From: a virus
IMG/VR virus record: IMGVR_UViG_3300029305_001256
DNA length: 44,269 nt
Reading direction: 5' to 3' (one strand)
The notes below the pieces were generated by a model that was given only the letters and a program-made list of their open reading frames with translations, ran no database searches and was not told the DNA's origin. Shown here one piece after another: positions 8,478 to 44,269 of the stretch; positions within the stretch are counted from its first letter, which is position 1, and the number at the start of each line of letters is the position of its first letter. The position numbers and the translations under genes are program-made.

Positions 8478-8896
8478 TGGCTGAAATGCAATTTTTACCG
8501 CAAACCGGTGATGATATTGACCTTATGGAGTTTGCCATAGAGGAGCAGCCCAGCTACACCTACAAGCTGGATATAGACAAAGGGCGTATAAGAGGTATGA
8601 CGGATGAGGCAGATGCAATGCTCCAGGCCGTTTACCTTATCCTTTCCGTGGAAAGGTACCAATACCCCATTTATTCATTTAACTACGGCGTGGAGCTTGC
8701 TGACCTCATAGGACAGCCCAAAGATTATGTAATGAGTGAGGCAAAGCGCCGCATTACCGAGGCCTTAACGCAGGATGATCGTATTGAGAGTGTTGACGGG
8801 TGGGCCTTTGAAACCACCAAAAAATCAGTTATTGTTACCTTTACGGTGCATACGATTTTTGGCGATATTGAAACAACAAAGGAGGTGGCGGTATGA
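8477..8896 (+). CDS. Baseplate wedge protein (XkdS / gpW-gp25-like position)
   Basis: A 139-aa ORF overlapping both of its neighbours, directly upstream of the baseplate J-like gene. Confidence 0.55.
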   Translation: MAEMQFLPQTGDDIDLMEFAIEEQPSYTYKLDIDKGRIRGMTDEADAMLQAVYLILSVERYQYPIYSFNYGVELADLIGQPKDYVMSEAKRRITEALTQDDRIESVDGWAFETTKKSVIVTFTVHTIFGDIETTKEVAV

Positions 8897-10122
8897 GCTT
8901 ATTTGAGGATCGTACCTTTGAAAACTTGCTTGCAAGTGCACTTGCAAGGGTAAGCCCCACCCTGGATAAGAGGGAGGGCTCCCTCGTGTATAACGGCAAT
9001 GCCCCGGCAATGGCAGAGCTGGCACAGTTATACATTGGCCTGGACTTTGTTTTTACGGCCACTTATATTGCCACCGCACCCCGTGAGTACCTTATTGAGC
9101 GTGCAAAGGACCGTGGTATGGAGCCCAAAGCGGCAAGTGCTGCGGTATTCCGTGCAGAGTTTAATATTGAGGTGCCCGCGGGTGCACGCTTTTCCTGTGA
9201 GGATCTTAACTTTTATGTGGCAGAGCGTATGCCTACCGATGAGGACACGGCAACCGGCTTGAGCCATAAGGTTATTTGCGAAACCGCCGGCACGGTGGCC
9301 AATGACTACACCGGGGCACTTATCCCCATTGAGTACATTGACGGGCTGGCATCCGCAAACCTCGTTGAGCTGCTTATCCCTGGCGATGATGAGGAGGATA
9401 CGGAGGTATTTAGGCAAAGGATCCTGGATGCCCTCCAATCACAGGCGTTTGGTGGAAACCAAGCAGATTACAAGCAAAAAGTTTTGAGCATTGATGGTGT
9501 GGCCGCCGTTAAGGTACACCCCGTATGGAACGCTGACACGCCCCCTGCTGCCTTTATTCCCTCCGAGGCGGTACAGGCGTGGTTTAATGACGGTATGGAT
9601 GGTGTAACCGATACGGCGGCAAAGGAATGGCTCACAGCCATTTACAACGCTGCCATCAATAAAAAGCTAACGGTGGGCGGCACGGTCCGCTTGGTGGTTA
9701 TGGCTGCCAACAATTCTGCACCCTCGGAGCTTTTGCTTGAAACCGTACAAACCACTATTGATCCCACGCAAAATGCCGGTGAGGGTATGGGGCTTGCCCC
9801 CATTGGCCACATCGTTAAGGTGGATGGTGTTAAGCTCCAAACCATTAACATTACCACCAACATTGTGCTTACGGCAGGCTGGGTGTGGGCCAACGCAAAG
9901 CCCTACATTGAGGAGGTTATTGATAACTATTTCAATGAGCTTGCCGAGGCCTGGGAAAGCAGCACCAACCTGGTTGTGCGTATTTCCCAAATTGAAAGCC
10001 GGATCCTGCAAGAGTGCTCCGCTTTTGTTATGGATATATACGGCACGCAGATCAATGGCGGCAATGCCAATATAACACTCGGTGAGGACTACATCCCCGT
10101 GCGAGGTGTTATAAATGAATGA
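8893..10122 (+). CDS. Baseplate J-like protein (XkdT-like)
   Basis: A 409-aa ORF. Size, position and sequence character fit the baseplate J family. Confidence 0.75.
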   Translation: MSLFEDRTFENLLASALARVSPTLDKREGSLVYNGNAPAMAELAQLYIGLDFVFTATYIATAPREYLIERAKDRGMEPKAASAAVFRAEFNIEVPAGARFSCEDLNFYVAERMPTDEDTATGLSHKVICETAGTVANDYTGALIPIEYIDGLASANLVELLIPGDDEEDTEVFRQRILDALQSQAFGGNQADYKQKVLSIDGVAAVKVHPVWNADTPPAAFIPSEAVQAWFNDGMDGVTDTAAKEWLTAIYNAAINKKLTVGGTVRLVVMAANNSAPSELLLETVQTTIDPTQNAGEGMGLAPIGHIVKVDGVKLQTINITTNIVLTAGWVWANAKPYIEEVIDNYFNELAEAWESSTNLVVRISQIESRILQECSAFVMDIYGTQINGGNANITLGEDYIPVRGVINE

Positions 10123-10735
10123 TAGAAAATTGATTGACTACCTCCCGCCTGTATTGCAGGCCGTGCTTGAGTATGTGCAGATAACTGCCGCACAGCAACC
10201 GGAGTTTGAGCTGGCTTGGGATGCCCTTAACTTTGTTATGGATAATCAATTTATTGATACCGCAACCGAGGAGGGCGTTGCAGTATGGGAAAAGGAGCTC
10301 AACATTGTACCCCTTAATACGGAAACGCTGGAGGAGCGTAAACAGCGTATAAAAACCGCCTGGACCTATGGCGTGGTTTATACCTATAATTGGCTGGTGA
10401 ATTGGTTAAAAACCTCCTGCGGTGATACACGCCGCTTGCCCACCATCAATGATTACACCCTCCGTGTAGCGTTGCCCGTTTCTGTTGACTACATAAGAAT
10501 TTTGGAGGATATGAGGCGGTATATATCGGCCAATGTGCTTATAGATCCCCTCATCCTGCTTACCAAAATTGATATGACACACTATGTGGGTGCTGCTTTC
10601 CGGCACTCGGTGCGCCAGACGATGCAAACACCGGCGTGGGATATGGATAACATAAACCTGCTTACCGATGAAAACGGCATCGTGCTTATGGAGGAGGCAG
10701 GCAGCAAAATACTTTATGAGGAGGTTGTTGTATGA
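10115..10735 (+). CDS. Baseplate/tail-fibre attachment protein (XkdU / P2 gpI-like position)
   Basis: A 206-aa ORF overlapping the J-like gene and the fibre gene. Confidence 0.55.
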   Translation: MNDRKLIDYLPPVLQAVLEYVQITAAQQPEFELAWDALNFVMDNQFIDTATEEGVAVWEKELNIVPLNTETLEERKQRIKTAWTYGVVYTYNWLVNWLKTSCGDTRRLPTINDYTLRVALPVSVDYIRILEDMRRYISANVLIDPLILLTKIDMTHYVGAAFRHSVRQTMQTPAWDMDNINLLTDENGIVLMEEAGSKILYEEVVV

Positions 10736-12015
10736 CACCTAATTTAACAGATGCCGGCAAAAATCTTTTGCTCCGGGCATTAACAGGTGAAACCATCACC
10801 TTTACCAAAATACAGCTTGGTAACGGTCCTGCTCAAGATGCGAAAGCGGCAACGGGGCTGGTAAACCCCCTGCTTACTGTTGAGCTTTCCAAAATGGAGG
10901 TTGGCCAGGAATATGTTACCCTTACAGCTGCTTTTACCAACGGTACCGTTGTGAGTGGTTTTCATATCACGGAGGCAGGTTTTTATGCCAAGGATCCGGA
11001 TGATGAAACCAAAGAGCTTTTGTACGCCCTCGGCAACGAGGATGAAAGCACCGCAGACTATGTACCGAATAACGCAAACCGCATCCTGGAAATGGAGTTT
11101 AATGCTCTGCTTTTCGTGGGCGATGCGGAAAATGTGGCGGCGGCTATTAACAGCTCCCTTGTTTATGCCTCTGCTGCTGACCTTGAGGCACACACCGGAA
11201 ATGTGGAAAACCCGCACGGCGTTACAAAGGAGCAGGTGGGGCTCGGCAATGTTCCCAACAAGAGCACCAACGATCAAACCCCTACCTATGAAACCGCAAC
11301 ATCCTTTGCAACCCTTACCTCCGGTGAAAAGTTAAGCACCGCCTTTGGAAAAATCAAGCTGGCGATCACCAACCTTATTAACCACATTAGTAACAGGAGC
11401 AACCCGCACGGTGTAACAGCCGCACAGGTAAATGCGGCGGCAAAGGCTCATACGCACAATGCCACCGACATTAACGCAGGTACGGTGCCCGTTGCCCGTG
11501 GTGGCACAGGTGCAAGCTCTTTCCCATCCGGTGCTTTGGTGCGTGGTACGGGTGGCGCATCGCTTAACTATTTACAGGGTGCAGGTGCTTTATACTCACC
11601 CTCTACCGGCAACCCTCGATTTGGTACCCTGCCCATTTCTATGGGTGGCACGGGCGTTACTACGCTTAATGCGTTGCTTGAACTCGTTGCACAAAACCTT
11701 TTTGTTACCGGTATGTATGACGGTAACGGATCTGCGGGCCGTGTAATTGATCTGGGCTTTACCCCCAAAGCGGTATTGCTTTTTGATGCCGAGGGTAATA
11801 CCCACGATGATGTTGACGATCTGCACGGCGGCTTGGCATTGCGTAATTACAATGTTATCAGCCGTAATGCCTCTAATACTTACACCACAACCTGGAGCAA
11901 TACATATTGCGTGCTGGGCATCGTGAGTGGCGGTTTTAGAGTGAACTACAACAGCGGCCAGGAAATACGCTCCAACGAAAACGGCCACCGTTATTATTAC
12001 ATTGCATTTAGATAA
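10732..12015 (+). CDS. Tail fibre protein
   Basis: A 427-aa ORF with repeated fibre-type motifs (NPHGVTKEQVGLGNV..., NPHGVTAAQVNAA..., VARGGTGA, MGGTGV). Confidence 0.7.
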   Translation: MTPNLTDAGKNLLLRALTGETITFTKIQLGNGPAQDAKAATGLVNPLLTVELSKMEVGQEYVTLTAAFTNGTVVSGFHITEAGFYAKDPDDETKELLYALGNEDESTADYVPNNANRILEMEFNALLFVGDAENVAAAINSSLVYASAADLEAHTGNVENPHGVTKEQVGLGNVPNKSTNDQTPTYETATSFATLTSGEKLSTAFGKIKLAITNLINHISNRSNPHGVTAAQVNAAAKAHTHNATDINAGTVPVARGGTGASSFPSGALVRGTGGASLNYLQGAGALYSPSTGNPRFGTLPISMGGTGVTTLNALLELVAQNLFVTGMYDGNGSAGRVIDLGFTPKAVLLFDAEGNTHDDVDDLHGGLALRNYNVISRNASNTYTTTWSNTYCVLGIVSGGFRVNYNSGQEIRSNENGHRYYYIAFR

Positions 12016-12017
12016 GA

Positions 12018-12027
12018 GGGGGGGGGG
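12018..12027 (+). repeat. G10 homopolymer, intergenic, acting as the Shine-Dalgarno region of CDS 12037
   Basis: The sequence reads TAA GA GGGGGGGGGG TAAAGTGAT ATG. Confidence 0.9.
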
Positions 12028-12036
12028 TAAAGTGAT

Positions 12037-12261
12037 ATGATTACAAAACTCAAAGAGGGTAACACCTATGTTGTTGACAATGAGGGCATTTATACGGAGT
12101 TTATCTGCGATGAGCCCGCCGATGTGCTGAACTTGCCAACGGGTGCAAATTCCTCCAGCCTTGACAGGCCACGCCCCGGTAGCACGGCGGTTATCACCAG
12201 CACCCAAGAGGTGTATGTGCTTACCAATCAGCGTGTATGGGTTGCACTTGTAGAGGGGTGA
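12037..12261 (+). CDS. Hypothetical protein (tail-fibre module)
   Basis: A 74-aa ORF preceded by the G-rich SD. Confidence 0.5.
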   Translation: MITKLKEGNTYVVDNEGIYTEFICDEPADVLNLPTGANSSSLDRPRPGSTAVITSTQEVYVLTNQRVWVALVEG

Positions 12262-12265
12262 TAAT

Positions 12266-12451
12266 ATGGCAAATATGGCTGTGTTAAAGCCCTTACCCCA
12301 AGACAATAACCCCATAACCCTTTTGCTTATGCGTAAAGGTAAAAGCAAGGTTATTGAGCCGCCTGCCGGCTCCGTATTCCTTGCTGACGAAAACAACAGG
12401 CTCCTCCGTGATGAACGGGGAGCCTATTTAATTGAAAACAAGGAGGACTAA
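12266..12451 (+). CDS. Hypothetical protein (tail-fibre module)
   Basis: A 61-aa ORF, tightly packed between its neighbours. Confidence 0.45.
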   Translation: MANMAVLKPLPQDNNPITLLLMRKGKSKVIEPPAGSVFLADENNRLLRDERGAYLIENKED

Positions 12452-12457
12452 ACCACT

Positions 12458-14233
12458 ATGGCAAATACTGTTTCGGTTGTTGAAAAACCCATCCCCGAAA
12501 AAGTAAGCAAAGAGGCTTATGTGCTCGGCATCCAGGATGATGGATCCGGCAAGCAAGCCCTTTACCGCTTGCCCCTTAATGAGGTGCGTGCAAACGGTGC
12601 AAATGACCTGTTTATTATCCCGGCTCTTATTGAGCAGTACGGTACCAAGCAGGCATTTACCGTGTTTGTAAACGCTAATGCCGAATATGACAGCCTCACC
12701 AACCTTGCGGATCGTTTCTTTAAGGCTGCGGCCTCGGCGGTTACGCAAACCTATACCTCACAATTTTACCGCTATAACACCAGCAACAGCTCCCTTGGTA
12801 CCAAGATGGCTGACAATGAGGGGCTTGTTTGTACCCCCTCCACCATTGCCACCGCCGGCCAGGATGATTATGCAGACCTCCCGCTTTTCGCTTGCTTTGA
12901 TATTAACTATATCATTGACAGCGTAAGCCTTGAGCCGGTAATTATCGCCATCAAGGATGTTTACGGGCCCTTTACCTCCACGCCCACCGAGAGCTTGGTT
13001 GGCGTGCTCCAAATGACGGGCTGGGTACGCCGCAGCGGTGATGATACCACCAAAACCGTTGAATACAGAGCACAGCAGGCGGCAGGCTTTAAGCCTTTGC
13101 CGGAGGGTGTAAAGGTTGACGGCAGCGTGCGTGGTTATGTTATCCACGCCAAGTATGCCGCAGGCTTGGATGCAAACGGTTTGCTTTCCAGCATTTCCGG
13201 CGTACAGCCTGCGACCTCAAGATCCGGATCCCAGGGCTCAAAGAGTATCAGCCACGATGGGCAAATTGCTTTGTGGCGTGCCCGTGGCAACCAGTACAGC
13301 GGTGCCTCCCTTTGCGACCACGCATTTTTGCAGCTTATGCTTGAGATCAAATATGCTGACCTCGGCAACGCTGTTAAAATGGCCGGCTGTCGCAGTTACA
13401 GCACCAGCTATGCCGCCGCTGTTTCCGAGAACGGTGTAAACCGCATTGTGCTTACTGCATCGCAGGGTGCTTATTATGTGGTTGGCTCCCGTGTTTCTAT
13501 CGGTACCAGCAATGACCGTGCAAAAGCAACCTGCTACGATGTGCACGATATTGCCACCGTTGCCAGCATTGAGGATGTAACCATTAACGGCACCGCCTAC
13601 AAGGCCGTTTATTTAGCCACAGAGGATATTTTCGATGTGGTGGCGGGTACAACCTACATCACCCCGCAGCCGTGGGCTACGGGCAGCACAGACAGCGTAC
13701 CGGGCAATGACGGCAGCCCTACCAACAACACCAACGGCAAAGAGCCCTTTAAGATCCAGGGCATTGAGGTTATGCTTGGTATGTACGAGGTGCCCGGCGG
13801 CGTTAAGCTGAATGAGGACACGGAAAAGTACACCGTATATGCAAACCGTTTGGCCGCTGATATTGTGGCAGGCGGTACCATCAACGATGGTTATTTTATC
13901 CTTGGAACTATCCCCAAAGAGGAGGCGGCAGCGTGGAAATACAACGCCGAGCTCAACTGGGATGCCAATGACCAGGATGCTTATATGCTTGGCCAGCAGT
14001 TTGAGGGCGGCTCCACAACGGGCTACCGATCCGCTACATACCGAGATGCGGCAGCAACTACCGGTTGGCGTGAGTGGCGGGCTTTCGGTGGTTTGGTCAA
14101 TGGCGGGTACAGCGGTTTGGCTTGCGCTAGTTTGTACGGTGGCCTCGGCAATGCTGACTGGCACATCGGCGCCCGCTCGTCTGGCACCTCCGGTAATAGG
14201 GGTGAATATACGGCGGCGCAGGCCGCCGTATAG
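12458..14233 (+). CDS. DGR target protein: tail-fibre/receptor-binding-module protein carrying the variable repeat in its C-terminus
   Basis: A 591-aa ORF. Its last ~50 codons (...WRAFGGLVNGGYSGLACASLYGGLGNADWHIGARSSG...) align to the template repeat, with differences at template adenines. Confidence 0.85.
   Translation: MANTVSVVEKPIPEKVSKEAYVLGIQDDGSGKQALYRLPLNEVRANGANDLFIIPALIEQYGTKQAFTVFVNANAEYDSLTNLADRFFKAAASAVTQTYTSQFYRYNTSNSSLGTKMADNEGLVCTPSTIATAGQDDYADLPLFACFDINYIIDSVSLEPVIIAIKDVYGPFTSTPTESLVGVLQMTGWVRRSGDDTTKTVEYRAQQAAGFKPLPEGVKVDGSVRGYVIHAKYAAGLDANGLLSSISGVQPATSRSGSQGSKSISHDGQIALWRARGNQYSGASLCDHAFLQLMLEIKYADLGNAVKMAGCRSYSTSYAAAVSENGVNRIVLTASQGAYYVVGSRVSIGTSNDRAKATCYDVHDIATVASIEDVTINGTAYKAVYLATEDIFDVVAGTTYITPQPWATGSTDSVPGNDGSPTNNTNGKEPFKIQGIEVMLGMYEVPGGVKLNEDTEKYTVYANRLAADIVAGGTINDGYFILGTIPKEEAAAWKYNAELNWDANDQDAYMLGQQFEGGSTTGYRSATYRDAAATTGWREWRAFGGLVNGGYSGLACASLYGGLGNADWHIGARSSGTSGNRGEYTAAQAAV
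14074..14184 (+). repeat. DGR variable repeat (VR)
   Basis: Aligns without gaps over 111 nt to 14295..14405. There are 16 mismatches, 13 of them opposite TR adenines. Confidence 0.9.
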
Positions 14234-14250
14234 AGGGGCGTTAGCCCCTC
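14211..14250 (+). other. Two adjacent GC-rich hairpins, each with a 7-bp stem and 4-nt loop, just 3' of the VR
   Basis: CGGCGGC-GCAG-GCCGCCG at 14211..14228 and GAGGGGC-GTTA-GCCCCTC at 14233..14250. Both stems are perfect. The second starts on the last base of the stop codon. Confidence 0.7.
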
Positions 14251-14294
14251 ATAAAGGGATGTACTGTGGACCCTCGTGCCCTTTGTCCTATGTT

Positions 14295-14405
14295 GTGGCA
14301 GGCTTTCGGTAATTTGAACAATGGCGGCAACAGCGGTTTGGCTTACGCTAATTTGAACAATGGCCTCGGCAATGCTAACTGGAACATCGGCGCCCGCTTT
14401 TCTGG
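14295..14405 (+). repeat. DGR template repeat (TR)
   Basis: An adenine-rich copy of the VR with 24 A, mostly in AAC/AAT codons. The 72-aa ORF 14266..14484 over it is the shadow of this repeat. Confidence 0.9.
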
Positions 14406-14492
14406 TAGATATTTATTTTTATTACGCAGTACATTTATGGCGGCTCTGCTGCCATACGGGGTAACACCTGCCTTGGGCTCATAACCCAAAAA

Positions 14493-15716
14493 TTGAGATA
14501 TAACCGGCACCGTAAGGAGGGGCGGTATTACAAGGCCGCCCCTGGGGTTAGTAGAGAAAACCGAAAGCCCTTGTGCTCACCAGACGATATAAAGGAGGGG
14601 TTACTTATCAAGACCTATTGCAAAAATATTGATATAACAAACCCCGATGTGATAGAGCCCTGGGTGCACCTCTGCATCACGGATCCCAAAAAGCGAAACC
14701 GCCCAGGTTTTAAGCGTTTGGTTGCCAAATACGGAGGTGCCCACGGCATTGCGGTTGAGATCACGGAGCGAATAAAAGCCCGTGATCTTGCTTTGCCGCC
14801 TATACATTATCGTAACCGGGTTGATAAGAGCAGCGGAAAAGAACGCAGGCTCGGTATTGAGAGTGCTATGCAGCAATGTATGAATTATGTTGCAGTTTAC
14901 GCACTTATGCCTATGTTAAAGGCAAAGGTTGGCCAATTCCAATGTGCAAGCATACCGGAGCGTGGCCAAATTTACGGTAAAAAGGTGCTTGAGAAATGGA
15001 TCCGCAAAGATCCCAAAGGCACTAAATATTATGACAAAATGGATGTGCGGCATTGCTTTGAAAGCATCAAGTGCCGCACGGTCCGCAAACTGCTTGAGCG
15101 TGATATACACAAAAACCCTACACTTATATGGTTTGTATGTGCTTTGGTTGACACATACGAGGATGGGCTTTCAATAGGCAGCTTTTTGAGCCAATGGCTG
15201 TGTAACTATGTTATGAGCTACGCATACCACTACGCCACGGAGCAGCTTTACAAAGAACGCCGGGGCAAGCGTAAAAACCTTGTTACCCACCTGCTTATGT
15301 TTATGGATGATGTGTATATGACCTCCGGCTCAAAGCGTGATCTTAAAATGGCAGGCAAGCAATTTGAGGAGTACCTGCTTACCCGCTTGGGGCTTTGCAT
15401 AAAGCCTAACCACCACATTAAGGAAACGGCAAAGGAGCCACCGGATATGATGGGCTTTGTTGTTTCCAAAGAGTGCACCACCATAAGAGCCCGCACCTTT
15501 GTACGGGCACGCAGGGCACTTATAAGGGCCTGGAGGCGTATGCAGGCTGGGCTGTGTATTTACATACAAAACGCCCGCCGCATTGTTTCATACCGTGGCT
15601 ATTTTAAGCACACCAACTCCCAAAAGGTGGCTGCGACCTTGCACCTCAAAGAGGTGTTTAGAACTGCACGCAAAACAATAAGTAATTTTTCAAAGAGAGG
15701 AATGGTACCAGTATGA
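14493..15716 (+). CDS. DGR reverse transcriptase (5' boundary uncertain)
   Basis: RT motifs are present: ...GKERRLGIESAMQQC..., DVRHCFESI, the DGR-type LSIGSFLSQ (I/LGxxxSQ), and FMDDVY (YxDD class). A strong AAGGAGG at 14592..14598 suggests the real start lies near 14600 rather than at TTG 14493. Confidence 0.85.
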   Translation: MRYNRHRKEGRYYKAAPGVSRENRKPLCSPDDIKEGLLIKTYCKNIDITNPDVIEPWVHLCITDPKKRNRPGFKRLVAKYGGAHGIAVEITERIKARDLALPPIHYRNRVDKSSGKERRLGIESAMQQCMNYVAVYALMPMLKAKVGQFQCASIPERGQIYGKKVLEKWIRKDPKGTKYYDKMDVRHCFESIKCRTVRKLLERDIHKNPTLIWFVCALVDTYEDGLSIGSFLSQWLCNYVMSYAYHYATEQLYKERRGKRKNLVTHLLMFMDDVYMTSGSKRDLKMAGKQFEEYLLTRLGLCIKPNHHIKETAKEPPDMMGFVVSKECTTIRARTFVRARRALIRAWRRMQAGLCIYIQNARRIVSYRGYFKHTNSQKVAATLHLKEVFRTARKTISNFSKRGMVPV

Positions 15717-16081
15717 TTACAAAAGCGTATTTTACAGAACGCCCGGAAAGTATCAAGTTTATGCCTTTGCCCTCCGGGGATGCAGATCTCTGGTTGCGTA
15801 AAAACATTGCCGAGATTACGGATCCGGAAACCAACGAGGTAAGCTATGAGGCCGATGAGGCATATATGCGTACCGATGCCACCAAGGCTGAGATTGAGGC
15901 AGATTTTGAGGGCTGGTTTGAAACCGCCAGCGAATGGCAGCCCACACAGCCCACACCTGCACCCGGCACCGAGGATGAGCGTATTACCGCCCTTGAGGGC
16001 GAGGTGGAAACCTTAAAGGTTGAAAACGCCGCACTCAAGGAGGAATTGCAGGCAACAAAAATTATTTTGGGGGTGGACTAA
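15713..16081 (+). CDS. Acidic coiled-coil protein of the tail-fibre/lysis junction (XkdW-position hypothetical)
   Basis: A 122-aa ORF with an ATGA overlap to the RT stop. The C-terminus is coiled-coil (LEGEVETLKVENAALKEELQ). Confidence 0.5.
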   Translation: MITKAYFTERPESIKFMPLPSGDADLWLRKNIAEITDPETNEVSYEADEAYMRTDATKAEIEADFEGWFETASEWQPTQPTPAPGTEDERITALEGEVETLKVENAALKEELQATKIILGVD

Positions 16082-16492
16082 ATGACACTTGTTGAATATG
16101 CAATGCAGTTACGCCCCCTCATTGAAAAGGCGGCACAAAGCCTGCCGGATGAGGATGCTCTTAACGGCGTTGCTTTATTTCCCCATTGGGCCGTTGGTGT
16201 AGATTACACCGCCGGCCAAAAGGTGCAGTATGATGGCGTGCTTTACACCGTACTGCAACCTCATACATCACAAGAAACCTGGAGCCCCGCAGCTGCACCC
16301 AGCCTCTTTGCAAAGGTACTGATCCCCGATCCTACGGTGATCCCCGAATGGGAACAGCCGGACAGCACAAACGCATACAAAAAGGGTGATAAAGTACGCT
16401 ATAACGGCGTGGTTTATGAAAGCCTTATTGATGGGAATGTGTGGAGCCCGGAGGCTTACCCTGCCGGTTGGCGTGTGGTTGAGGAGGGTTAA
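16082..16492 (+). CDS. Carbohydrate-binding protein (two CBM5/12-like repeats)
   Basis: Two repeats of the Y..G..V.Y.G..Y....H.S...W.P pattern: YTAGQKVQYDGVLYTVLQPHTSQETWSP and AYKKGDKVRYNGVVYESLIDGNVWSPEAYP. Confidence 0.55.
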   Translation: MTLVEYAMQLRPLIEKAAQSLPDEDALNGVALFPHWAVGVDYTAGQKVQYDGVLYTVLQPHTSQETWSPAAAPSLFAKVLIPDPTVIPEWEQPDSTNAYKKGDKVRYNGVVYESLIDGNVWSPEAYPAGWRVVEEG

Positions 16493-16495
16493 GCC

Positions 16496-16837
16496 TTGTA
16501 TGTAGATGCACAAACCATTATAACGGCGGGGGCGGTATTAACCGCCCTCATCGCATTTATCACCCTTGCCTGGAAACTTTTTCAATGGATCAACAGCGTT
16601 AAAGAGCTCAAGCAAGAGGTGGCAAGCCTCAAGACAAAGCACGATGAGGATATTAAGGCAGTAAAGAATATGCACAACCACGATCGTGATGGCATCCAGG
16701 AGGAGCAAACCCTGGTTGTGTACGGTTTGCTTGCCTGCCTTAAAGGCCTTGCAGAGCAGGGCTGCGATGGCCCCGTTTCCGAGGCTATTGACCGTATAGA
16801 AAAACATATCAACAAAAAGGCCCACGGCCAAGAATAA
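16496..16837 (+). CDS. Membrane-anchored coiled-coil protein of the lysis cassette (possible holin partner)
   Basis: TTG start 7 nt after GAGGAGGG. There is one N-terminal hydrophobic helix (IITAGAVLTALIAFITLAW) followed by a charged helical region. Confidence 0.4.
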   Translation: MYVDAQTIITAGAVLTALIAFITLAWKLFQWINSVKELKQEVASLKTKHDEDIKAVKNMHNHDRDGIQEEQTLVVYGLLACLKGLAEQGCDGPVSEAIDRIEKHINKKAHGQE

Positions 16838-16853
16838 TAAGGAGGTTTTCCCT

Positions 16854-17798
16854 ATGATGAAAAGCACAGATTTTATTGCAAAGCTCAAGGATATTGCCAC
16901 CAACTATAAAACCCTCTATGTGATGGGTTGTTTTGGTGCCCCTATGACCAGCAGCAACAAAAAGCGTTATACCAATAACCATACCTATAACAAGCAGGCT
17001 GCCCGCACAAAAATGATTAACGCCGCCTCTGCCGACACTTTCGGCTTTGACTGCGTTTGCCTCATTAAGGGTGTGCTGTGGGGATGGTGTGGCAATGCCA
17101 ATAAAACATACGGCGGTGCAGGTTACGCCATCAACGGGGTGCCGGACATCGGCGCCGACACGATGATCACCAAGTGCTCCGGTGTTTCCACCAATTTTGC
17201 CAACATCGTACCCGGTGAGGCGGTGTGGATGCCCGGCCATATCGGTGTATATATCGGCAACGGCTTGGCCGTTGAATGTACGCCCAAGTGGGAAAACAAG
17301 GTACAGATCACAGCGGTTGGCAATATCGGCAAAAAGACCGGTTACAACACCCGCACCTGGACCAAGCACGGCAAGCTCCCTTATGTGGAGTATGTTGCAG
17401 AACAGCAGCCCGTGCAGCAGCCCGTGCAGCAGCCCGTTGTAACACCCACCGCCTCTGCCTTTAAGGCTGGGGATGAGGTGAAAATCACCGGCAACACCTA
17501 CTATAACGGCGGTACCATACCGAGCTGGGTAAAAGCAAAAAATTGGATCGTTTACTCGGTAAGCGGTGATCGTGTTGTTATCAATAAGAGCGTTGATGGC
17601 AAAAATGCAATTATGAGCCCCGTTAAGGCCTCAAACCTTGCACTTGTTTCCAGCAGCACCACAAAGACCGTTGAGCAACTTGCCCGTGAGGTTATCCAGG
17701 GCAAGTGGGGTAACGGAGCCACCCGTAAAAAGAGGCTCACCGAGGCTGGTTATTCTTACGCCGCCGTGCAGGCGAAAGTGAACGAATTACTCAAATAA
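16854..17798 (+). CDS. Endolysin: NlpC/P60-like cysteine peptidase, SH3-like domain and CW_7-like cell-wall-binding repeat
   Basis: Cys...His pattern (GFDCVCLIKG ... GHIGVYIGNG), a QQPVQQPVQQPV linker, and a C-terminal GKWGNGATRKKRLTEAGYSYAAVQAKVNELL motif. Confidence 0.8.
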   Translation: MMKSTDFIAKLKDIATNYKTLYVMGCFGAPMTSSNKKRYTNNHTYNKQAARTKMINAASADTFGFDCVCLIKGVLWGWCGNANKTYGGAGYAINGVPDIGADTMITKCSGVSTNFANIVPGEAVWMPGHIGVYIGNGLAVECTPKWENKVQITAVGNIGKKTGYNTRTWTKHGKLPYVEYVAEQQPVQQPVQQPVVTPTASAFKAGDEVKITGNTYYNGGTIPSWVKAKNWIVYSVSGDRVVINKSVDGKNAIMSPVKASNLALVSSSTTKTVEQLAREVIQGKWGNGATRKKRLTEAGYSYAAVQAKVNELLK

Positions 17799-27733: not shown

Positions 27734-28527
27734 ATGCAGTATATGGGCGGCAAAAGCCGTATTGCCCGCAGCATTGCTAACATAATCAATGAGGTACCAA
27801 GGTGGAAAATCAAGAATAGCAACACCGTTGGCACAGATCCTCAACTCTGCGGGGGGGGGCTTGCTTTGTTAGTCTTTTCTGCGGTAGCTGCTCCGTTGAG
27901 AGCAAAGTAACCGGTTATGACCGCATCATCCTAAACGATAAGCACGAGTATTTGATCTCAATGTTAAAGGGTGTACAGCAAGGTTATGAATTGCCGGAAA
28001 CCATAACGGAGGATCAGTACCAATATATACGAGCCAACAAGGATGCAGATCCCGTGCTCACAGGCTTTGTGGGTTTTGGGTGCAGCTTTGGTGGCAAGTG
28101 GTTTGGCGGTTACGCCAGGAATAAGGGCGGCACCAATTACGCAGCCCAAAGCAAAAGATCATTGCTTAAAGATATGGCCACGCTCGGCGGTGCAGAGTTT
28201 ATTTGTGGCGATTATCGCAAAGTACCGATACCGCCCGGAGCCGTTGTGTATGCGGATCCACCGTATGCAGACACCACGGGCTATAACGGTGAGAAATTTG
28301 ACAGCAAAGAGTTTTGGCGGGCAATGCGGTTGCTTGCTGATACCGGGCACACCGTTTACATAAGTGAGCAGACCGCCCCGCCAGACTTTGTATGCGTGTG
28401 GGAAAAGCCCTTTACCCGCACCCTCGACAGAAACAAGGGCAACCAATTTAAGGTAACAGAAAAGCTGTTTACCTATGTATCACCGCTTTACCAAGGAGGC
28501 GTACAAATTGATACCCTTACCAAATAA
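27734..28527 (+). pseudogene. Dam-like (D12-class) N6-adenine DNA methyltransferase split by a G9 tract
   Basis: The N-terminus MQYMGGKSRIA... is in frame 2 up to the tract. The continuation ...ACFVSLFCGSCSVESKV...VVYADPPY... is in frame 1, and G10 would join them. Confidence 0.75.
27851..27859 (+). repeat. G9 homopolymer at the frame break of the Dam-like gene
   Basis: Read directly. The context is CTGC-G9-CTTGC. Confidence 0.9.
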
Positions 28528-29065
28528 AAAATACAGCGTTATATACGCAGATCCACCCTGGGCTTATCAGCAAGGTGGCAGAGGTGCCGCCAAGCATCAT
28601 TACGATACGATGAGCACCGAGGCATTATGCAATATGCCCGTGCGGGATATTTGCACCGATGATGCCGTGCTCTTTATGTGGGCCACTTTCCCGAATTTGC
28701 CGGAGGCATTAAAGGTGATGGAGGCCTGGGGCTTTACCTACAAAACGGCAGCGTTTGTGTGGGTGAAACAAAACAAAAAGGCACCCACCTTGTTTATGGG
28801 TGGCGGCTCCTACACCAGGGCAAATGCGGAGGTTTGCCTGCTCGGTGTAAGCAAGAATACCAAGGCAAAAAGGTTTGTGGCATCACACAGCGTGCGGCAG
28901 ATCATTATAACACCGGTACGCCAGCACTCCCAAAAGCCCGCAGAGGCACGGGATCGCATCCGTGAACTCACGGGGGGGGATCACTCGTACATAGAGCTTT
29001 TTGCCCGAAATACCACACCCGGCTGGGATGTGTGGGGAAACGAGGTAAACAAATATGAAAACTAA
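28508..29065 (+). CDS. MT-A70-family N6-adenine DNA methyltransferase
   Basis: AAGGAGG lies 8 nt before the in-frame TTG 28508. The DPPW motif is present (YSVIYADPPWAYQ) and the family-typical C-terminus reads HSQKPAEARDRIREL. It contains an in-frame G8 tract. Confidence 0.8.
   Translation: MIPLPNKKYSVIYADPPWAYQQGGRGAAKHHYDTMSTEALCNMPVRDICTDDAVLFMWATFPNLPEALKVMEAWGFTYKTAAFVWVKQNKKAPTLFMGGGSYTRANAEVCLLGVSKNTKAKRFVASHSVRQIIITPVRQHSQKPAEARDRIRELTGGDHSYIELFARNTTPGWDVWGNEVNKYEN
28972..28979 (+). repeat. G8 homopolymer, in frame, inside the MT-A70 gene (encodes T-G-G-D)
   Basis: Read directly. The context is TCAC-G8-ATC. Confidence 0.9.
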
Positions 29066-29555
29066 AATATACATTGCCGGCAAGATTACCGGCGATCCGG
29101 AATATAAAGCAAAGTTTGATGCTGCGGCAGCAGAGTACAAAAAAAAGGGTTACACCGTGCTTAACCCCTCTTGGATGCCCCAGGGTATGCAGCCTGCCGA
29201 TTATATGCGTATTTGCTTTGCAATGATCGACACAGCGGATGTGGTTGCTTTTCTGCCTGGGTTTAGCAAGAGCCCCGGTGCAAGGCTGGAGGCAGAATAC
29301 TGTTTTTATACCGATAAAAGCACCATTATGCCGGATGGTGAAAGTTTGGAAACACCGAACTGCTCACAAAAAGAATTGACGGCATTAAAAGCGGTGTACT
29401 ACTTGGCCGAGAGAAACCCACGCCTGCGTATGGGTGGCACTTGGGTTGAGGATGTACACAATATGGAAACCTGCCAGCGGATCCCGTTTGTTGAGGCAAT
29501 GCGGCTTGTTGGTAATATGCTTTATTGCTCCGATGATGAGGAGGCAAGACCGTGA
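29055..29555 (+). CDS. DUF4406 / nucleoside-deoxyribosyltransferase-like protein
   Basis: The N-terminus MKTKIYIAGKITGDPEYKAKF... and the later ...VVAFLPGFSKSPGARLEAEY... are typical of that fold family. Confidence 0.6.
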   Translation: MKTKIYIAGKITGDPEYKAKFDAAAAEYKKKGYTVLNPSWMPQGMQPADYMRICFAMIDTADVVAFLPGFSKSPGARLEAEYCFYTDKSTIMPDGESLETPNCSQKELTALKAVYYLAERNPRLRMGGTWVEDVHNMETCQRIPFVEAMRLVGNMLYCSDDEEARP

Positions 29556-30153
29556 AACACTACGGCGATATAACAAAAATAAACGGAGCTGCTGTGGAGC
29601 CCGTCAATGTGATTATTGGCGGCAGCCCTTGCCAGGATCTTTCCGTTGCAGGTAAGCAAGCAGGCTTACAGGGTGAACGGTCCGGGCTCTTTATGGAGCA
29701 ACTGCGTGTGATAAAAGAAATGAGGAGGGCTGACAATGCCAGAGGTAGAACAGGAAAAGACACCCGCCCAAGGTATATGGTGTGGGAAAATGTGCCCGGA
29801 GCTTTCAGCTCCACAGGAGGAGCCGACTTTGCAGCCGTGCTCCAAGAAACCGCAAAAGTGGCCTGCGAACAAGCCCCCGCTGTTCCTATCCCTAAAAACG
29901 GATGGCCTCCAGCCGGATGCCTTACCGATGTGGGAGGACAATGGAGCATTGCGTGGAGAGTACTTGATGCACAGTTTTGGGGCGTGCCCCAAAGACGAAA
30001 ACGCATCGCACTTGTCGCAGATTTTGGAGGCCTCACCGCACCCGAAATACTCTTTGAGCGCCAAGGCGTGCCTGGGTATATTAAACCGTGCGGAACGGAG
30101 GGGCAAGGTGCTCCCGGAAATATTGAAACAAGCACTAATACAGCAAGCCCAAC

Positions 30154-30161
30154 GGGGGGGG
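30154..30161 (+). repeat. G8 homopolymer inside the C5-MTase locus
   Basis: The context is AAC-G8-CTTATTG. It is in frame for ORF 29552..30502, and it is also where the overlapping ORF 29736..30239 begins to run out. Confidence 0.9.
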
Positions 30162-30303
30162 CTTATTGCATACAAGGTAACTGCATCGACAGAGCAGACA
30201 CCGCAGGATGCAACGGCAAAGGATGGACCGAGGGAGTAAGCTACACCCTAAACACCATTGACCGCCCCGCTGTGCTCCCTTTTGTGCCAGCCCCTCAAGT
30301 AAC

Positions 30304-30310
30304 GGGGGGG
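30304..30310 (+). repeat. G7 homopolymer inside the C5-MTase locus
   Basis: The context is AAC-G7-CTTACATTG. Frame 1 is open from here into the next recognisable segment. Confidence 0.9.
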
Positions 30311-30618
30311 CTTACATTGACAGCTCACCCTTTCGATCCGGCACAGGTAACTGCCCCGTTACATCGCAACCCAATGACGAACACAGAGAAATGCCACACG
30401 CTGCACAGCCTGGATGCCCCGGCGATTGTATCATATTTGAGCCGGGATCCTGCACCCGTGTTGGCGGGCATATCTGGCAAGATGGAAAAACCCCGGCGTT
30501 AAGAGCCGATGCAGGCGATAACCGCCCCGCCATAGCCCTTGAGCACCACCCTAACGATAGCAGGGTGAAAATAGCCGAGGATGGAATTGTACAAACCCTC
30601 AATGCTCGTATGGGCACC

Positions 30619-30627: not shown

Positions 30628-30826
30628 AATGTTCCACTCGTTATGTGCTCTACCAAAAGGCCATAGGCAGCCTATGTGCGAGGGATGCCAAAGGGATTGG
30701 CAACCAATATGTGCAGGAGGGCAAGTGCCTAATTATGGAGGTAACAAAATGATAATGTTTGAAAACTACCAATTTGCTAATTGGCGCCCCGGATGCGGAA
30801 CGCTAAAAGCAAGCGGTGGCGATTAC

Positions 30827-30835
30827 GGGGGGGGG
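30827..30835 (+). repeat. G9 homopolymer at a frame break of the C5-MTase locus
   Basis: ...TLKASGGDYGGG in frame 2 continues as SENLIVYEYWNGE... in frame 0. G8 would join them. Confidence 0.9.
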
Positions 30836-30908
30836 CTCGGAAAACTTGATTGTGTATGAATATTGGAACGGTGAGCCTGTGGTTGACACACTCACCGCAC
30901 GAAACGCT

Positions 30909-30917
30909 GGGGGGGGG
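30909..30917 (+). repeat. G9 homopolymer inside the C5-MTase locus (encodes GGG of ARNAGGGQRM)
   Basis: Read directly. It is in frame for ORF 30816..31352. Confidence 0.9.
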
Positions 30918-31344
30918 CAACGGATGCCGGATAAACAAAATTTTAACTGCGTTGTAGGAGCAGAGCAAAACCCTACTGAAACAAATTATATTGTACGCCG
31001 CCTTACACCGCTTGAATGTGAACGCCTGCAAGGTTTTCCGGATGGCTGGACCGATATAGGCGAATACACCGACAGCAAAGGTAAAGTACATAAAGAGTGT
31101 GCAGATAGTGCACGCTACAAGGCACTTGGCAACAGCATTGCCATACCGCCGTGGACTTATGTATTACAGCGGCTTTCTGTCTGCTGTGGTACGGAGGCAA
31201 CGATGGCCAGCTTATTTGATGGCATCGGCGGTTTTCCTCTTATCTGGGAACGCATTAACGGCAAAGGCTCTTGCCTTTGGGCAAGTGAAATTGAGGACTT
31301 TCCCATTGCCGTTACAAAATACCATTTTCCGGAGGAGGTACCCG

Positions 31345-31554
31345 ATGAGTAAAATACCTTACAGAAATAGTGAGGGCTACGCAGATCCCACGGCATACGC
31401 CGCCCTGGAGCCTATTGCCCAGGAGGAGGCAGCCCTTGAAAGCAAAGTAAACTTTTTAATAAAGGTGCTCAAATTCATTGCCAACGAGGCTGGGTTTGAT
31501 GTAACCAACCGCATTGAATTATGCGACAGAAAAACCGGCAGGGTTTTTAAGTAA
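31345..31554 (+). CDS. Small hypothetical protein upstream of the primase-helicase
   Basis: ATG 31345 overlaps the end of the MTase locus. The 69-aa product begins MSKIPYRNSEGYADPTAYAALEPI... Confidence 0.55.
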   Translation: MSKIPYRNSEGYADPTAYAALEPIAQEEAALESKVNFLIKVLKFIANEAGFDVTNRIELCDRKTGRVFK

Positions 31555-43829: not shown

Positions 43830-44231
43830 ATGGCTCTGTATGAGGATGTTGTGGCAAGGCTTGCAAGCCTTGGCTTTACAGTAACCGCAACCGACACACC
43901 GGATGCTGCCGTTACTTATTCCATTAACCGTGCTGAGGCTTTTATCAAGTCGCAGATCAACCGCACGGAAATACCGGAGGGGCTGTATTACACCCACATT
44001 GATATGGCGGTGGGCTTATTCCTTAAAGACAAAAAGGACACCAACCAGCTTGGTGCAAATTTTGACTTTACGGCGCCTGCTAAGAGTATCAGCGAGGGTG
44101 ATGTTTCCGTAACCTTTGCGGGAGCAGCGGATGGCAGCCTTACCCCGGAGGCAAGGTTTGATAAAATGGTGGATGCCTTTATCAACCCGCCACAAAGCGT
44201 ATTTGCCGCTTTTAGGAGGCTTAAATGGTAA
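43830..44231 (+). CDS. Head-tail connector (gp6-like DNA-packaging/adaptor protein)
   Basis: AGGAGG lies 8 nt before ATG 43830. The product is 133 aa. Its 3' end is duplicated at 1..89 by the assembly overlap. Confidence 0.65.
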   Translation: MALYEDVVARLASLGFTVTATDTPDAAVTYSINRAEAFIKSQINRTEIPEGLYYTHIDMAVGLFLKDKKDTNQLGANFDFTAPAKSISEGDVSVTFAGAADGSLTPEARFDKMVDAFINPPQSVFAAFRRLKW

Positions 44232-44269
44232 GGGGTGTAAACCTTGCCGCCGCTGTAAAAAGCCTCTGG
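44143..44269. repeat. Terminal overlap, identical to 1..127
   Basis: See the feature at 1..127. Confidence 0.9.

Follow-up and report, generated by a model that had tools for sequence, protein, structure and literature searches.

Described elements and the present locus

In the diversity-generating retroelement (DGR) of BPP-1, a podovirus of Bordetella with the gene order mtd–avd–TR–brt, complementary DNA (cDNA) copied from a template repeat (TR) and mutagenized at adenines replaces a variable repeat (VR) at the 3′ end of a tail-fibre gene. The segment 12458–15716 of the window, by which is meant the whole 44,269-nucleotide viral DNA analysed here (IMG/VR record IMGVR_UViG_3300029305_001256), is interpreted with high confidence as a DGR of the accessory-less 'target–TR–RT' type, where RT denotes the reverse transcriptase, carried by a complete circular temperate phage of gut Oscillospirales. 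This confidence covers the mechanism proposed below as a whole, some steps of which are modelled on BPP-1.

Besides the exchange of a VR at the 3′ end of a tail-fibre-like gene, the two elements have in common a homologous RT (with IGxxxSQ and a YMDD-type motif), a GC-rich putative initiation of mutagenic homing (IMH) sequence that differs from IMH* toward its 3′ end, a GC-rich hairpin past the VR and a duplex between the flanks upstream and downstream of the TR. The peptides encoded by the two TRs also share a terminal motif, '...NAN(WN)IGAR', ending in ...NSNANIGARGVC in BPP-1 and in ...GNANWNIGARFSG in the present element, which is the sole link to the BPP-1 variable protein Mtd. Unlike BPP-1, the window element is without avd and has a VR–TR gap of 110 nt only, its target has no detectable similarity to Mtd, its RT is only ~18–22% identical to that of BPP-1 (Brt) and its total spacer is ~200 nt. 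The upstream arm of the duplex lies inside avd in BPP-1, whereas that of the window is intergenic. In BPP-1, TR and downstream arm are separated by ~58 nt that hold an Avd-binding stem-loop and the priming strand, and here by a 19-nt AT-rich linker; since the longer BPP-1 segment includes the Avd-binding stem-loop, the short linker fits the lack of Avd. The carriers differ as well, the window being a temperate myovirus of Clostridia.

Phage DGRs that diversify tail proteins are well catalogued, notably in the gut, and the accessory-less architecture has been described previously. Avd or HRDC genes occur in ~74% of DGRs, Avd being needed in BPP-1 but not universal. Architecture A, in which TR and RT are found without an accessory gene, makes up 29% (75/372) of DGRs and was taken to imply an Avd-independent homing mechanism (Wu et al., 2018, NAR 46:11, PMC5758913); in the literature searched, such a mechanism is mentioned by these authors alone, and no biochemical study of an Architecture A member was found there. 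The present locus has this layout, with target, TR and RT on one strand and no Avd, HRDC, MSL or CH1 gene.

The sole GenBank phage records with similarity to the RT or the target are the DGRs of Faecalibacterium phage FP_Epona, Butyrivibrio phages Arawn and Idris, Lactobacillus phage LBR48, the Bacteroides 'hankyphage' and the 'Bacteriophage sp.' MT83xxxx contigs of human faeces. They resemble the window element in their gut habitat, phage-borne RT and tail-associated targets but are distant from it, with RT identities of at most 39% and target identities of at most 38%. Among 50,697 phage records, megablast found no nucleotide match to the cassette, and the closest relatives are metagenomic contigs and prophages in metagenome-assembled genomes (MAGs) of Oscillospirales.

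Adenine-directed divergence and the reverse transcriptase

A direct-repeat search covering positions 12000–17000 found one strong family (D1), consisting of a VR at the 3′ end of the target open reading frame (ORF) and a TR downstream of it (Table 1). No second, remote VR-like copy was found on either strand of the window. The two repeats align without gaps over 111 nt at 86% identity and an offset of 221 nt, and the homology stops abruptly at both edges of the unit. Of 16 mismatches, 13 lie opposite TR adenines (nine A>G, three A>T and one A>C); the hypergeometric probability of placing at least 13 of 16 mismatches on 24 adenines among 111 positions is 3.3e-8. The other three are a C/G mismatch (TR 14328, VR 14107) and a TT/CG pair (TR 14399–14400, VR 14178–14179). 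At the protein level Asn is replaced by Gly, Val, Tyr, Ser, Asp and His, Tyr by Cys and Gln by Arg. A first-pass annotation of this DNA had reported the gapless 111-nt alignment, the 16 mismatches and the 13 at adenines, and the recount agrees with it base for base; the residue changes that it listed at Asn, Tyr and Gln codons are correct on translation, and the mismatches are not spread evenly over the four TR bases.

The adenines of the TR are distributed with 12 at codon position 1, 12 at position 2 and none at position 3. Ten of the adenine-bearing codons are AAY and the remainder are CAG, AGC, TAC and ATC; because adenines are found only in these codons, their randomization would vary 14 residues and give ~1.5e14 possible peptides with zero stop codons.

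Related contigs and loci that were compared with the window are designated by L-numbers. A word-indexed search yielded 278 RT homologues at E<=1e-5, and IMG/VR holds >568 related stretches. The order VR–TR–RT is kept in 10 close loci and in ~60 distant ones, down to ~35% RT identity, and one repeat-plus-RT arrangement is conserved alongside different target proteins. Individual loci have 9–30 VR/TR mismatches, almost all of them on TR adenines. In a pool of 68 distinct TR/VR pairs, 975 of 1600 TR adenines are changed (61%; A>G 452, A>T 307 and A>C 216), against 43 of 1796 C, 8 of 2088 G and 31 of 1778 T (0.4–2.4%). Non-adenine substitutions specific to a lineage are present alike in the TR and the VR of one locus, a pattern that in these sequences indicates the footprint of continuing TR-to-VR transfer. 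Judged from this comparison, the DGR is regarded as intact and recently active.

The clearest single comparison is with L097, which over 10 kb shares ~86% identity with the window and yet has a TR identical at 111 of 111 positions. The two VRs differ at 16 positions, 15 of which are at TR adenines; the remaining one is position 14107, where the window VR has G, and the synonymous C/G mismatch is therefore read as a private point mutation of the window VR. The TT/CG difference at the 3′ end, in which the first-pass annotation had seen an IMH/IMH* pair, is common to L097 and the window. In every relative, at least one non-adenine difference falls within the final ~8 nt of the repeat, and the BPP-1 repeat pair has a comparable 3′-end difference between IMH and IMH*. 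The CG/TT difference thus fits a putative IMH/IMH* distinction that would give the transfer its directionality.

Three observations concern the template itself. Firstly, in L098, which is 95.6% identical to the window, the TR is also identical at 111 of 111 positions, so that one sequence is found in the window, in L097 (7838–7948) and in L098 (130–240); this identity in three genomes reflects either very strong purifying selection on the template or recent spread of the cassette. Secondly, the TR of L001/L017 (1752–1862) lacks seven adenines in its 3′ half (17 versus 24) and matches its own VR there, which looks like VR-to-TR gene conversion or mis-homing of cDNA into the TR, eroding the template. 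Thirdly, L091 (2194–2301) has an adenine-poor TR, with 13 adenines versus 24.

The RT matches Pfam RVT_1 at 3e-9 and phrog_1423 'reverse transcriptase' at 1e-56. The LSIGSFLSQ and FMDDV motifs that had been read in this ORF in the first-pass annotation are present in its translation (Table 1). An [I/L/V]GxxxSQ motif 4 in place of QGxxxSP is a signature of DGR RTs. A profile built from 39 homologues found 8ub7_A as its best match in the PDB (2.8e-21, 79 bits), the aligned sequence of which is BPP-1 Brt as in NC_005357; the group II protein LtrA scored 47.5 bits and retron-type RTs ~36 bits or fewer. Alignment of the RT with Brt using hhalign gave a probability of 99.2% over 263 columns. With the single sequence, phmmer found no match in the PDB, and bRT was reached by the profile only. 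By its motifs and profile scores the RT is assigned to the DGR type.

A decaying, tandem-like duplication at the 3′ end of the target gene next to an unrelated RT of the group II intron, retron or Abi type would also place two similar copies merely 221 nt apart, and it would account for the weak, sub-threshold similarity of the RT to NCBIfam group II and retron models. These scores are, however, far below the family cut-offs (45 bits versus 300 for the group II maturase model TIGR04416 and 26 bits versus 235 for the retron model NF038233), and Rfam identified no group II intron or retron RNA, whether at the gathering threshold on the whole window or at E<=1 on the TR–spacer region. The best solved relative is bRT, the IGxxxSQ motif is present, the RT neighbours are tail and lysis genes rather than those of a retron and the arrangement is conserved with different targets. 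A duplication of this kind would not concentrate its mismatches on adenines as seen in the window and, at 61% against at most 2.4% for the other bases, in the pooled pairs. The probability of this explanation is consequently considered to be negligible, and the locus is treated as a DGR in what follows.

The start of the RT gene requires comment. The ORF opens at an upstream TTG (14493), and gene callers pick an in-frame TTG (14571) that has no Shine–Dalgarno sequence. The stretch 5′ of 14607 is taken to be noncoding because it shows non-triplet indels and RNA-like conservation. From the alignment of homologues, the RT most likely starts at the ATC listed in Table 1 and not at TTG 14493. The corresponding codon in relatives is mostly GTG or ATG, with ATA in L022 and L030 and ATC in L032. 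The non-AUG start may act as a dosage control.

Table 1. Positions of the features of the retroelement in the window
Feature	Position	Strand	Description	Basis
Target gene of the DGR	12458..14233	+	tail-fibre-like virion protein, 591 aa	phrog_17147, synteny, BFVD fold matches
VR-bearing C-terminal module	13745..14230	+	~160 aa, residues 430–591	phmmer homologues
Variable repeat (VR)	14074..14184	+	codons 540–576 of the 591-codon ORF 12458–14233	
IMH-like 3′ end of the VR	14163..14184	+	GC-rich GGCGCCCGC (14168–14176), then CG (14178–14179); TR has TT	
Hairpin 1	14207..14232	+	TATACGGCGGC-GCAG-GCCGCCGTATA; 11-bp GC-rich stem, 4-nt loop	
Hairpin 2	14233..14250	+	GAGGGGC-GTTA-GCCCCTC; 7-bp stem	
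Duplex, upstream arm	14257..14268	+	GGATGTACTGTG	pairs with 14425–14436
Template repeat (TR)	14295..14405	+	non-coding, 24 adenines; encodes invariant template WQAFGNLNNGGNSGLAYANLNNGLGNANWNIGARFSG	
Spacer RNA, TR to RT	14406..14606	+	~200 nt	alignments of relatives
Duplex, downstream arm	14425..14436	+	CGCAGTACATTT; 19 nt past the TR	
Shine–Dalgarno sequence	14592–14600	+	AAGGAGGGG	perfect Shine–Dalgarno
Probable RT start, ATC	14607–14609	+	6 nt past the Shine–Dalgarno sequence	homologues begin MKTYCK at the same codon
DGR reverse transcriptase	14607..15716	+	369 aa	RVT_1, phrog_1423, bRT profile match
RT motif 4	15168–15194	+	LSIGSFLSQ	ORF translation
RT catalytic motif FMDD	15300–15311	+	FMDDV, 15300–15314	ORF translation

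Sequence elements around the repeats

The cryo-EM structure of a bRT–Avd–RNA complex contains an avd:Sp duplex termed 'cPRT Stop', and similar duplexes with a mean length of 13 bp were predicted in 207 DGRs, all with an Avd-like gene (Handa et al., bioRxiv 10.1101/2023.10.23.563531). The two arms that enclose the TR of the window form a duplex of 12 bp, including G–U pairs, and the noncoding block 14254–14290 is nearly invariant in close relatives. Of 50 distinct loci, ~45 have an equivalent helix of 8–16 bp at matching positions, and the arms comprise 37 different sequences. Pairs were counted by script, and the main support comes from an unfitted control in which the flanks of one locus were paired with each other or across loci: own-locus flanks pair far better (Mann–Whitney p = 8e-22). 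RNA duplexfold applied to long flanks discriminated poorly. By analogy, the TR-enclosing duplex would correspond to 'cPRT Stop' and may have a role in stopping cDNA synthesis.

The 5′ part of the spacer comprises the 19-nt AT-rich linker, the downstream arm and hairpins at 14437–14455 and 14473–14489. Conserved blocks are AAAATTGAG (14489–14497), AACCGGCACCG, GGTTAGTAGA (14546–14555) and AAACCGAAAGCCCTTGTGCTC (14558–14578), and a covarying stem is formed by 14516–14525 and 14536–14545. RNAalifold, run on a MAFFT alignment of 13 spacers, gave 7 pairs only, in a small hairpin (U–A to C–G in 6 of 13) and a 3-bp long-range helix; the pairs are few because a variable hairpin misaligns. No Rfam family was found for the spacer at the thresholds given above. 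The conserved elements of the spacer would bind and position the RT.

Two further features of the spacer are recorded here. In the window, as in L006, L008 and L009, the downstream arm is followed by extra sequence (14437–14472 in the window) that is not present in L001–L003, and in the window this segment holds a hairpin, ATGGCGGC-TCT-GCTGCCAT. As the extra sequence is present in some loci and not in others, the spacer appears to tolerate modular insertions at this point. In addition, the 5′ end of the TR, GGCTTTCGGT (14301–14310), is perfectly complementary to the invariant spacer block ACCGAAAGCC (14559–14568), and the minimum free energy (MFE) structure uses this pairing. It was not adopted as an element of the locus: on inspection by eye, it is kept, with a wobble, in L011 and is broken in L017, L024 and L014. 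The complementarity is either functional or a coincidence of conserved 'AFG' codons.

Downstream of the VR, the DNA of 14180–14256 folds with an energy of −25.8 kcal/mol (z = −6.2 versus shuffles) into two adjacent hairpins. The hairpin or cruciform described after the VR of DGRs is GC-rich, has a stem of 7–10 bp and a 4-nt GRNA loop and lies 4–34 bp from the VR; in the BPP-1 cruciform, the structure of the stem counts and its sequence does not (Guo et al., 2011, PMC3240598). The hairpins of the window agree with this description in structure and position and in part with its loop consensus. Hairpin 1 of the window lies 22 nt past the VR and spans the stop codon of the target, and its stem shows compensatory changes in relatives, for example GGCGGC/GCCGCC versus GCCGGC/GCCGGC. 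Its sequence thus varies while the pairing is kept, as in the BPP-1 cruciform, and it is the best candidate for a target-site hairpin or cruciform. The GAGGGG/CCCCTC stem of hairpin 2 is conserved throughout the clade; its loops vary and are GGTA in most close relatives, which fits GRNA. Hairpin 2 has no T-tract and is therefore not an intrinsic terminator, and no terminator-like site was found. Just before hairpin 1, GGGGTGAAT (14199–14207; 'RGE' in the target) is conserved at the nucleotide level even in distant loci with different targets, which suggests a cis role in target-site recognition beyond its coding function.

No Avd or HRDC gene was found in the cassette or in the entire circular genome. 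The bAvd model (PF22296) recognizes BPP-1 Avd at 7e-36 and matched none of the ~55 ORFs of the window, a tblastn search of the window with Avd gave a best E of 0.29, which is noise, and NCBIfam and PHROGs added nothing. The VR–TR gap is 71–170 nt in ~70 relatives. The clade as a whole is likewise without Avd. The label 'complete', which the first-pass annotation had attached to the element, thus holds for an accessory-less TR–RT architecture and does not extend to an Avd or HRDC gene. The 122-aa ORF that follows the RT was rejected as a substitute for Avd: it has a pI of 4.2, a coiled-coil tail and a match to phrog_37768 (function not assigned), and Avd proteins are basic, with a pI of ~9.5 (Wu et al., 2018, PMC5758913). 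The counterpart of this ORF in L014 is followed by an XkdX-family gene, and this gene order suggests that the 122-aa protein is tail-fibre-associated.

These features bear on whether the cassette still works. A DGR that was active recently and is now dead, inactivated through its non-AUG RT start, through lack of Avd or through a GGTA-to-GTTA change in a hairpin loop, would agree with the ATC start, with the missing Avd, with a hairpin 2 loop that departs from the GGTA of relatives and with the private non-adenine mutation at 14107, which would be an ordinary mutation accrued since the last homing event. That change is nevertheless the single non-adenine one accrued in 111 nt, and the RT ORF is intact with every catalytic motif present. 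Full conservation of the TR between genomes that are otherwise 86% identical implies that selection still acts on the template; four relatives with diversified VRs also have an ATA or ATC start, and the clade shows its 61% adenine turnover in spite of being Avd-less. A dead cassette is therefore held to be improbable, and the reading as an intact, recently active DGR is retained.

Target protein, proposed mechanism and host phage

The target protein matches phrog_17147 at 3e-107 and, weakly, phrog_5302 'tail protein'; no Pfam family was found for it. An AlphaFold2 model of the full-length protein (55 sequences) has a predicted local distance difference test (pLDDT) score of 67, falling to ~30 for residues 541–591, and in a second run on residues 220–591 (136 sequences; pLDDT 56) the VR region stays unmodelled. 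A Foldseek search of BFVD with the target model found proteins predicted as 'tail collar fiber' and crAss 'tail fiber' (E from 1.7e-26 to ~1e-5), which come from uncultured gut and crAss-like phages. Against the PDB, the first target model gave no Foldseek match at E<=0.001 (best 0.27), and phmmer and profile searches with the target were both without a match. The probability given by hhalign for the target family against Mtd was 0.15%, and the TR-encoded, 'ancestral' C-terminal peptide found only noise in the PDB. The C-type-lectin (CLec) fold that the first-pass annotation had envisaged for residues ~480–591 stays a prediction, both AlphaFold2 runs giving a pLDDT of ~30 in the VR region and no CLec match being obtained.

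The VR-bearing C-terminal module gave 209 matches at E<=1e-3 in a phmmer search of 1.84 billion representatives, nearly all of them at the C-terminus of the respective protein; a word-indexed search with the C-terminal 171 aa found only 15 close fragments. Proteins bearing the module are 142–1958 aa long, and its N-terminal partners include BppU_N, collagen, phage fibre repeats and Prophage_tail, so that by this distribution it is considered to be a portable C-terminal domain. Pfam does not cover the module in any of 70 module-bearing proteins checked, a silence that is uninformative since even the lectin domain of Mtd itself has no Pfam coverage. Among 120 target homologues, column entropy reaches 2.4–3.5 bits at the AAY-templated residues (545, 547, 548, 551, 558, 560, 561, 565, 567 and 569) and is ~0–0.4 bits between them.

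Binding of a receptor by the variable tip of the target is well supported by context, namely by the tail-fibre-module neighbourhood, the tail-collar-fibre fold matches and the fusion of the module to fibre-type N-termini, from all of which this role would follow. The position after the tail-fibre genes, as given in the first-pass annotation, is correct according to the gene order. Alternatively, the DGR could be real and its target not a receptor-binding tip at all but a decoration protein, a depolymerase-like protein or one related to superinfection. The target has no Pfam or PDB match, the fold of its VR domain is unmodelled, a separate tail-fibre gene lies upstream (10732–12015) and the target adjoins a CBM5/12 protein and lysis genes, all of which leave room for such a role. 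Synteny nonetheless places the gene among the baseplate and fibre genes of a PBSX-like tail module, its BFVD matches are tail-collar and tail-fibre proteins and its module is joined to BppU_N, collagen-like, fibre-repeat and Prophage_tail N-termini. Tail proteins, moreover, make up most phage DGR targets (Roux et al., 2021, PMC8144416). A target of another kind is thus rather unlikely, and a receptor-binding tip remains the preferred assignment.

The claim that this locus is a DGR diversifying the C-terminus of a tail-fibre-module protein is upheld by the adenine bias, the DGR-type RT, the IMH-like end, the tail context and the relatives with an identical TR. In the mechanism proposed, an RNA that includes at least the sequence from 14257 on, with the TR and the spacer, would continue into the RT gene as read-through of the late tail operon; since no + strand promoter or terminator was found between target and RT, this DGR RNA probably belongs to the late tail transcript. 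The ~12-bp duplex, which covaries among the loci, would close the TR into a loop, and the spacer core, the blocks of which are conserved, would bind the RT. The RT would be translated at a low level from the AUC behind its strong Shine–Dalgarno sequence and, if its enzymology follows that of BPP-1, would copy the TR into cDNA with misincorporation opposite the 24 adenines, leading to the A>N outcome observed. Guided by the IMH and the downstream hairpin or hairpins, again as in BPP-1, the cDNA would then replace the VR by homing. At the C-terminal tip of the target, 14 residues would thereby take up to ~1.5e14 combinations with the TR unchanged, most likely varying receptor binding, and, unlike in BPP-1, no Avd would be involved.

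Several observations weigh against this interpretation. Avd is missing, although it is required in the sole biochemically reconstituted DGR. The RT start is non-canonical, with homology as its only basis. The 19-nt AT-rich linker shows no evident counterpart of the BPP-1 priming duplex TR117–129:Sp47–56, and the MFE of the 357-nt DGR RNA as a single sequence (z = −0.04) is no better than that of shuffles; this single-sequence fold omits the covarying duplex. Both hairpin loops, GCAG and GTTA, deviate from GRNA, and the distance of 48 nt between the VR and hairpin 2 exceeds the published 4–34 bp. By sequence, profile and fold alike, the VR domain has no match to Mtd or to any solved CLec variable protein. 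Finally, differences between relatives serve here as a proxy for variation within the phage population of the window, in which present-day activity is probable.

The window is read as a circular, complete phage genome because its ends overlap by 127 identical nucleotides (1–127 and 44143–44269), giving ~44.1 kb with 50% GC; related contigs are 43–46 kb. Upstream of the target lie genes for baseplate J (8893–10122), a Mu Gp48-like protein (10115–10735) and a tail fibre (phrog_7037), followed by two small ORFs. The tail genes further include those for head–tail adaptors, sheath, tube, an XkdN-type chaperone, tape measure, a LysM protein, YqbQ, DUF2577 and a sheath initiator. The cassette runs from target, TR and RT to the 122-aa acidic protein and the CBM5/12 protein, then to endolysin and holin; a serine recombinase and a helix–turn–helix repressor are encoded on the opposite strand. 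Other modules hold replication and methylase genes, as well as terminase, portal, Mu-F-like protein, scaffold and capsid genes. The contractile tail, recombinase and repressor indicate a temperate PBSX-like myovirus. MAGs from the gut of humans, goats and deer that are assigned to Ruminococcus, Faecousia, Acutalibacteraceae and Oscillospiraceae contain close relatives of the RT, and on this genomic evidence the carrier is assigned as a complete temperate contractile-tailed phage of gut Oscillospirales (Clostridia). One 84%-identical RT is encoded on contig L104 (JAFQEF010000090.1, 1779 bp), which was assigned to an 'Akkermansia sp.' MAG, whence the name of P0251; since all other hosts are Clostridia, this assignment is probably a binning error and not a cross-phylum host.

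The two genes after the RT (15713–16492) encode the acidic 122-aa protein with its coiled-coil tail, the start codon of which shares ATGA with the stop of the RT, and a protein of 136 aa that consists of two CBM5/12 carbohydrate-binding modules. Both are kept beside the RT in close relatives and are possibly fibre-associated or cell-wall-binding factors. Elsewhere in the genome, the ORFs 29552–30502 and 30816–31352 match the N-terminal part (profile positions 46–130) and the C-terminal part (258–321) of a C-5 cytosine methylase, ~300 nt apart, and could be a split, interrupted or frameshifted gene. Just upstream of them are two adenine-methylase-like ORFs, a D12-class fragment (27952–28527) and MT-A70 (28475–29065).

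A more far-reaching proposal is offered tentatively, as a possibility that is less probable than not: the clade, which is ubiquitous in gut Clostridia phages, may run Avd-independent mutagenic retrohoming in which RNA replaces Avd, and its VR module may be a new scaffold or a very divergent CLec. The basis for the first part of this idea is the 19-nt linker, the retained duplex and a long, conserved RT-proximal core, AAAATTGAG...AACCGGCAC...GGTTAGTAGA...AAACCGAAAGCC.

For the most part this element is a textbook DGR and adds one further gut-phage case of targeted hypermutation of a tail protein. It goes modestly beyond the routine in the clade-wide lack of Avd with the duplex kept, in the unclassified VR module and in the recurrent AUC or AUA start of the RT, none of which is advanced here as new biology. 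The 'stop' duplex, known from DGRs that have Avd, is conserved in this clade without Avd as well, and its covariation is abundant. With a complete circular genome and cis elements mapped to the base, the locus is a compact candidate for the reconstitution of an Avd-less DGR. In addition, it draws attention to a C-terminal variable module, widespread and unannotated, on tail fibres of phages whose hosts are Oscillospirales, a group of abundant and poorly cultured gut bacteria.

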